Positions 39,379 to 40,133 of a stretch of 64,000 nucleotides of DNA are shown here, one piece after another. The position numbers and the translations under genes are program-made. Numbering within the stretch: position 1 is the first letter of the stretch; each line of letters starts with the position of its first letter. Under the pieces are notes generated by a model that ran no database searches, was not told the origin of the DNA, and saw nothing but the letters and a program-made list of their open reading frames with translations. Origin of the DNA: Escherichia phage vB_EcoM_Shinka; sequence record MZ502379.1. One strand, 5' to 3'.

Positions 39379-39927
39379 ACCCAAGAAAACATCTACTGAT
39401 CGTTGATACCACTGCAAATCCAAATAGCCATTACGCACATTAAACTGATAGAACATATGACAAGGCGGTAATGCCATCTGCTTGAGTTCAGCTGGATTCC
39501 ATGCTGAAACAATTTGACGCCTATCATTTGGCAATTTTTTAATACGATCAATAACTTCTATAATTTGGTCTACACCGCCAAAATCACGCCACTGTTTTCC
39601 ATAAATTGGACCAAGTTCACCGCTATGGTATCCTAAATCTTTTGCTTGATTTTCGTAATTTTCATCCCAGACTGTTTTGCCTTGAATTAATGAATTATGT
39701 TGAATTAATCGCAAATCATTGACATTTGTGCTTCCCGATAAAAACCAAAGCAGCTCAGCAATGCAAGCTTTCCAGGCGAGCTTCTTAGTTGTTACTGCAG
39801 GAAAACCTTTAGTTAAATCCCAGCGTAATTTAGTACCGAACAAAGCAATTGTTCCTGTGCCTGTTCGGTCATCGGTTTCGTAGCCATTTTCCAGGATATC
39901 TTTAATTAAAAATTGGTATTGTTTCAT
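39379..39927 (-). CDS. td: thymidylate synthase, exon 1 (183 codons)
   Basis: ATG 39927 ([26 protein letters not shown]...); active-site region ALPPCH present; the track start at 39939 is a TTG. Confidence 0.9.
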
Positions 39928-40133
39928 TAGTTCATCCAAGAATATGTAGAAGGATATTTGGCAAAGTTAGGCTTATATCCTAATTTAACCATTTGTTTTG
40001 CTTTGCGAGTAAATCCTAAAGAACGCTCACCTTTAAGATATTGTTTTGGTGTCATAGGCCCTTGATGCATCTGCCGACAAATAAAAAGGGCCATAGCATT
40101 AGGAACATCCTTAACTTTTAATTTATTGCTCAT
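39927..40133 (-). CDS. hypothetical small basic protein between frd and td
   Basis: 68-aa ORF; start ATG overlaps the frd stop (ATGA) and stop TAA overlaps the td ATG (TAATG). Confidence 0.6.

Follow-up and report, generated by a model that had tools for sequence, protein, structure and literature searches.

Between the dihydrofolate reductase gene frd and the thymidylate synthase gene td of Escherichia phage vB_EcoM_Shinka (sequence record MZ502379.1) lies a 68-codon open reading frame (ORF), and it is this ORF and the boundary it occupies that we discuss here; the window refers to the whole stretch of 64,000 nucleotides (nt) that was analysed. The locus belongs to a T4-type nucleotide-metabolism operon, part of which reads, on the minus strand, gene 32, small frd.x ORFs, frd, the 68-codon ORF, td exon 1, the intron, td exon 2, nrdA.2, nrdA.1 and nrdA (Table 1). 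The ORF shares bases with both of its neighbours, through an ATGA overlap with the frd stop and a TAATG overlap with the td start, an arrangement that a sequence-only reading of the DNA had described and that our analysis confirmed in every detail, down to the peptide it quoted. We hold it very probable that the ORF is a gene, that it is one of the alternative fillings of a polymorphic slot, and that it has been exchanged between phages; the whole of the explanation that we favour, which adds an accessory role for the product, we regard as probable.

The frd gene of the T4 reference lies at 145109..145690 and its td ends at 145112, so that the two overlap directly by the four nt ATGA, just as the sequence-only reading had stated, and the 68-codon ORF is absent from T4 at this locus. 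Alignment of the two junctions gives a clean difference of exactly 204 base pairs (bp): T4 reads TATATAAATGAAACAATACC and the window reads TATATAAATGA[GCAAT...ACTAATGA]AACAATACC, with an AATGA direct repeat bounding the extra 204 bp. The junctions are alike in their flanking genes, in their overlapping style of stop and start, and in the upstream initiation region, the 30 nt upstream of the ORF being the translation-initiation region found ahead of td in T4. They differ in that T4 lacks the 204 bp, carries another allele of the td 5' end (9 of 60 nt), and represents a minority allele. The window, JS10, Marfa, CIP9 and 4S, the five T4-group genomes compared, all carry a TGGATG(A/G) motif that precedes the td start by 9-14 nt. 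No promoter-like or terminator-like site flanks the ORF, the nearest terminator lying after gene 32, and the sequence features of a translationally coupled gene are all present: the same strand as its neighbours, stop/start overlaps with both of them, and neither promoter nor terminator of its own. In the hyperplastic regions of T4-type phages, mobile cassettes are defined as an ORF flanked by an early promoter and a stem-loop. The 68-codon ORF is not of this class, as it meets both neighbours in coding overlaps and has no promoter or terminator motif next to it.

Table 1. Features at and around the frd-td boundary, in window coordinates.
Feature	Position	Strand	Remarks
68-codon ORF	39927..40133	minus	207 nt (204 nt plus TAA); ATG start; PHROG 9550 member
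ATGA overlap	40130..40133	minus	ORF ATG (40133..40131) with frd stop TGA (40132..40130)
TAATG overlap	39925..39929	minus	ORF TAA (39929..39927) with td ATG (39927..39925); one base in common
Putative exchanged island	39868..40133	minus	ORF plus first ~60 nt of td; Dhakavirus-like
frd (dihydrofolate reductase)	40130..40711	minus	T4-like, 97% nt identity until 3 nt before the ORF start
td exon 1	39379..39927	minus	549 nt
td group I intron	39059..39378	minus	320 nt; Rfam RF00028, 66.9 bits; without endonuclease ORF
td exon 2	38747..39058	minus	spliced to exon 1 gives an intact 286-amino-acid thymidylate synthase
81-amino-acid ORF (PHROG 3183)	40711..40956	minus	between frd.1 and frd; stop TAA overlaps the frd start (TAATG)
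gene 32	42067..42975	minus	first in the operon order listed

By comparison with its homologues, the 68-codon ORF is a real phage gene and not a chance reading frame, because it matches PHROG 9550 over its full length, has a low ratio of nonsynonymous to synonymous divergence (dN/dS), and keeps both its start and its length, where a chance frame would behave otherwise. The profile match has an E value of 1.3e-45 and places residues 1-68 on profile positions 1-68 of 68, and tblastn finds matches to the protein in 237 phage records. Against the homologues of Klebsiella phage Marfa, Enterobacter phage CIP9, Serratia phage 4S and coliphage JS10 the dN/dS is 0.06-0.28, with synonymous sites saturated or near-saturated in the diverged pairs used. 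Across 16-22 homologues the family begins with MSNKLKV or MKGNKxKV; most members are 66-81 amino acids long, with a few reaching about 108, and K4, K6, P11, R20, K34, G40, A45, M48, L51, G52, Y53 and P55 are near-invariant. That the frame is merely an untranslated spacer, open by accident, is hardly credible: some GenBank records (JS10, JS98 and Paracelsus) carry the gene without annotating it, as a spacer would lead one to expect, but the dN/dS lies well below 1, the frame has acquired neither indels nor stops despite saturated synonymous divergence, and the 68 codons fill the frd-td gap exactly. RNA structure does not account for the nucleotide conservation of the ORF (folding z-score -0.02).

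The ORF is not new, since well over 100 GenBank genomes of T4-like phages already list it as a hypothetical protein and it has a PHROG of its own. The protein bears that label in identical form in more than 80 GenBank phage records, and about 130 records hold a protein at least 95% identical to it; the copies in Tequatrovirus and Dhakavirus phages (for example fPS-65 g232c, ACG-C40, Sf21 and dhabil_24) are the same protein in the same frd-td position, with nothing that sets them apart. A literature search found no paper on the 68-amino-acid ORF or on PHROG 9550. The gene is mislabelled 'flagellar biosynthesis protein' in PYPS2T (NC_054944.1, MH809535.1) and vB_EcoM_P8, and in IME339 only a 42-amino-acid fragment, starting from Met27, is called. 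In Shigella phage sb4 (locus L019, 1501..2567) the ORF is annotated in truncated form (162 nt) and td in odd fragments, while its frd shares about 86% identity with T4 and with JS98 alike, so that this region could be another mosaic or could contain sequencing errors. As the T4 reference is atypical at the frd-td junction, the 68-amino-acid gene can be overlooked when an annotation pipeline carries T4 gene models over to other genomes.

Homologues lie directly upstream of td, overlapping its start by 1-4 nt, in Marfavirus (81% amino acid identity), Kanagawavirus CIP9 (68%), Serratia phage 4S (60%) and Dhakavirus JS10 (98.5%), and this adjacency is kept even where one or two further ORFs stand between the homologue and frd. 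The gene thus has this place in five genera of T4-like phages (Straboviridae). Judged by these positions, it is old at the site upstream of td within the family and not a one-off insertion. The earlier suggestion of a precise 204-bp insertion stands in so far as the segment is exactly 204 bp long, preserves the overlaps on both sides and sits in a Dhakavirus-like patch; it has to be revised in that T4 carries the rare empty allele of a junction where the gene is old. More distant homologues, at 30-45% identity, are found in phAPEC8-like phages and in two uncultured (metagenomic) phage contigs, among runs of small early or replication-region genes and away from td, and no conserved neighbour or partner gene was found for the homologues outside the T4 group. 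An exhaustive profile hidden Markov model search of 1.84 billion representative proteins returned only 11 clusters, one of them spurious: P0026, a 1402-amino-acid repetitive protein in which profile residues 9-29 are matched six times (motif NVPSALGLHVCHQG), appears to be an artefact of repeats or low complexity, not a relative. IMG/VR, scanned with a degenerate pattern from a narrow alignment, gave only 9 loci and added nothing further. The family is small and restricted to phages.

The frd-td boundary was typed by searching with a synthetic empty junction and reading off the span of the match, in an evenly spaced sample of 60 of the 559 matching records. More than half of the sample (33/60, among them T2, RB18, RB27, PP01, wV7 and PST) carries an insert of about 415 bp with a 115-amino-acid ORF of PHROG 1928, which makes this ORF the commonest occupant of the slot in Tequatrovirus. 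A 206-bp insert, the 68-amino-acid ORF, is present in 13 records (fPS-65, PM133 and IME339 are examples), and the junction is empty, with frd and td overlapping directly, in only six, namely three Tequatroviruses (T4, RB59 and F1) and the Dhakavirus-like IME08, QL01 and 04086. The remaining eight matched in part, three being Dhakaviruses with the ORF (td part only) and five matching in the frd part only. As typed here, the boundary is a polymorphic slot with at least three fillings, of which the empty T4 junction is a rare version.

The two genes found in the slot are alike in being optional at the same boundary, PHROG 1928 in T2, RB18, RB27, SHFML-11 and most Tequatroviruses, and their proteins are unrelated. 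In SHFML-11 the 115-amino-acid ORF (locus L023, 1291..1638) is set off by short intergenic spacers and has a ribosome-binding region of its own, as opposed to the overlaps of the 68-amino-acid ORF. The Tequatroviruses examined carry the PHROG 1928 gene, the 68-amino-acid gene or neither, whereas Marfavirus, Kanagawavirus and 4S have both in tandem, the ORF between frd and the 68-amino-acid gene in Marfa, CIP9 and 4S being homologous to the 115-amino-acid protein of the larger insert. The ancestral layout was plausibly frd, PHROG 1928 ORF, 68-amino-acid ORF, td.

Along the junction, the window was compared with T4 and with Dhakaviruses. At the sites where T4 and JS10 differ, the window agrees with T4 through frd until 3 nt before the ORF start, with JS10 across td nt 16-60, and then with T4 again. 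Measured against five Dhakaviruses, its nt identity is 77-82% in frd, rises to 97-99% in the ORF and 92-98% in td nt 1-60, and falls to 73-77% over the remainder of td exon 1; against T4 the values are 97% for frd, 85% for td nt 1-60 and 95.5% after that. Synonymous divergence (dS) from the Dhakaviruses is 0.05-0.14 in the ORF, 0.84-1.12 in frd and saturated in td, and a tract of 267 nt diverging at 22% would show no more than 4 mismatches with a probability of 2e-23. The left edge of the island falls within AAATGA at the frd stop, and the right edge between window positions 39880 and 39862. Because the ORF and the td 5' end are Dhakavirus-like inside a T4-like backbone, the comparison indicates a recent cassette exchange with a Dhakavirus-like phage, with a tract that would begin at the frd stop and end near nt 60 of td. 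The Dhakaviruses show the same discrepancy among themselves (ORF 98-100% identical versus 82-91% for frd), and at larger distances the ORF diverges like its neighbours.

The same facts bear on a different history, in which there was no insertion at all: the window would have inherited the gene vertically from a T4-like ancestor, and T4 would have lost it by deletion between the AATGA repeats. Two observations weigh in its favour, the identical position of the gene in distant genera and the fact that deletion between the repeats would give exactly the T4 junction. Vertical inheritance predicts, however, that the ORF should have diverged as much as its flanks, when its dS is 0.05-0.14 against at least 0.84; the first 60 nt of td differ from T4 at 9 sites, compared with 4.5% in the rest of td; and the Phe6 allele of td that is linked to the ORF is derived, the outgroups having Asp or Glu, like T4. 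We therefore regard this history as highly improbable. Empty alleles may nevertheless arise by deletion, which is compatible with the exchange account.

As to the course of the exchange, the four ORF-positive Tequatroviruses examined have identical island boundaries, and three fixed differences split the Tequatrovirus from the Dhakavirus copies of the ORF; because of these two observations, a single transfer followed by spread is suggested by the sequences. Transfer from Dhakavirus to Tequatrovirus is the likely direction, but some Dhakaviruses have an empty junction and SHFML-11 has the same td 5' allele beside the other cassette, that of PHROG 1928, both of which weigh against regarding the direction as settled.

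A further alternative is that the ORF is the cargo or marker of a cassette that spreads selfishly, an endonuclease encoded elsewhere cutting the empty or alternative junction and repair from a co-infecting genome with the ORF then copying it in together with a short co-converted stretch of td. Free-standing homing endonuclease genes of T-even phages spread with co-conversion of their flanks, and the pattern of the island resembles this. By analogy, seg and mob cassettes are likewise optional, sit between conserved genes, are near-identical in otherwise diverged genomes and travel with a short flank. Such spread is favoured by an island that is near-identical across two genera whose flanks are 20-25% diverged, by the very sharp left edge at the insertion point and the short, one-sided reach of some 60 nt into td, and by the patchy presence of the ORF among close relatives. 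The product is what separates the ORF from seg and mob cassettes: its 68 amino acids hold no nuclease domain, motif or catalytic residues, no acidic or His residue is conserved across the family, and there is no likeness to I-TevI or MobE (hhalign probability 0.2%). There is also no endonuclease gene adjacent to the ORF, purifying selection at greater distance (dN/dS 0.08-0.28), where the ORF diverges like its neighbours, implies that it is kept for its product, and ordinary homologous recombination followed by selection would explain the same pattern. Selfish spread of this kind appears very unlikely to us, and self-mobility of the ORF is not supported.

Related candidates were also rejected. 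Membership of the GIY-YIG or HNH homing endonucleases finds no support, there being no conserved Asp, Glu or His, no Pfam match and an hhalign probability of 0.2% against I-TevI and MobE, and the idea that the protein is a remnant of a homing endonuclease DNA-binding domain was dropped after negative hhalign comparisons with the same two proteins. We likewise rejected the idea that the ORF is tied to the endonuclease of the td intron, as there are ORF-positive phages with I-TevI (fPS-2, PM133) and without it (the window). Of the T4 td intron, which holds I-TevI, about 690 nt have no counterpart in the window, where Rfam matched only the td intron. The 81-amino-acid ORF of PHROG 3183 upstream of frd is a second ORF that is absent from T4, and it is also annotated in sb4, fPS-2, PM133 and SHFML-11. 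Because its TAA overlaps the frd ATG, there are three successive stop/start overlaps in the window, joining the 81-amino-acid ORF, frd, the 68-amino-acid ORF and td.

The product was described in the sequence-only reading as small, basic and without a recognised motif, and this description holds. The protein has a mass of 7.9 kDa, an isoelectric point of 10.26 and a net charge of about +10.6. Scans of the protein and 22 family members against Pfam, NCBIfam and PADLOC gave no credible match (the PADLOC anti-phage defence profiles hit 0 families for the 22 members), a profile search of PDB sequences gave 0 matches at E <= 10, and comparison of the predicted fold with PDB and viral model libraries found nothing significantly similar. 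The AlphaFold model, built with a 22-sequence alignment, has a predicted local distance difference test score (pLDDT) of 82.5 and shows a compact three-helix domain with helices at 13-24, 29-38 and 43-50, with an aromatic-rich C-terminal segment that is predicted to pack against the three helices. Lys/Arg residues K4, K6, R20 and K34 are conserved, together with an LGYxP motif. An LGFxR...KLG pattern seen by eye suggested a Fis-type helix-turn-helix, and hhalign was negative; neither sequence nor fold matched the helix-turn-helix families considered (Fis/HTH_8, homeodomain-like).

We propose that the 68-amino-acid gene arrived in the window genome, or was last replaced there, by recombinational exchange with a Dhakavirus-like phage, and that, early in infection, ribosomes would translate it in turn with frd and td on the prereplicative message of the operon. 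The product could then be an early accessory factor that the phage can do without: it would bind nucleic acid or an acidic partner and would not be needed for thymidylate synthesis. Dispensability is suggested because T4, T2 and most Tequatroviruses lack the gene, and the guess at a binding partner comes from the charge, the conserved Lys/Arg residues and the early-gene context in unrelated phages; a nucleic-acid-binding accessory role is a tentative possibility.

The main functional rival is that the protein is an accessory subunit or regulator of Td, or a factor of the dNTP-synthesising complex, made in fixed ratio with Td by way of the overlapping stop and start. Several features of the locus speak for such a factor: in the five Straboviridae genera the gene is always directly upstream of td with an overlap of 1-4 nt, the adjacency holds even where ORFs separate the gene from frd, and the exchanged island carries the ORF and the 5' end of td as one unit. 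Set against them, the homologues of phAPEC8-like phages and of the two contigs are not beside td and have no common conserved neighbour, T4, T2 and most Tequatroviruses make functional Td without the gene, and a net charge of +10 with no enzyme-related motif does not point to a metabolic role. We consider a Td factor unlikely, and the accessory protein outlined above remains our preferred reading.

It is also conceivable, if quite unlikely, that the cassette made up of the ORF and the 5' end of td has lately spread in a sweep among Tequatrovirus and Dhakavirus populations that infect the same cells, either because the product is a new type of small basic counter-defence or host-takeover factor under strong positive selection or, in a homing-like way, by means of a trans-acting endonuclease targeting the empty junction. 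If this were true, the frd-td slot would be a small, well-defined arena of alternative accessory genes, with PHROG 9550, PHROG 1928 and the empty junction as its contenders.

Taken alone, the 68-amino-acid ORF is of little importance, being already catalogued as a hypothetical gene. The very basic family of 68-80 amino acids to which it belongs is common to T4-like and phAPEC8-like phages, and is a reasonable candidate for functional screens, for instance against host defence systems. The island illustrates neatly how T-even genera exchange modules, and the frd-td boundary, as a compact natural three-allele system with a sharply bounded exchanged tract, could serve the study of how T-even phages swap their accessory genes.
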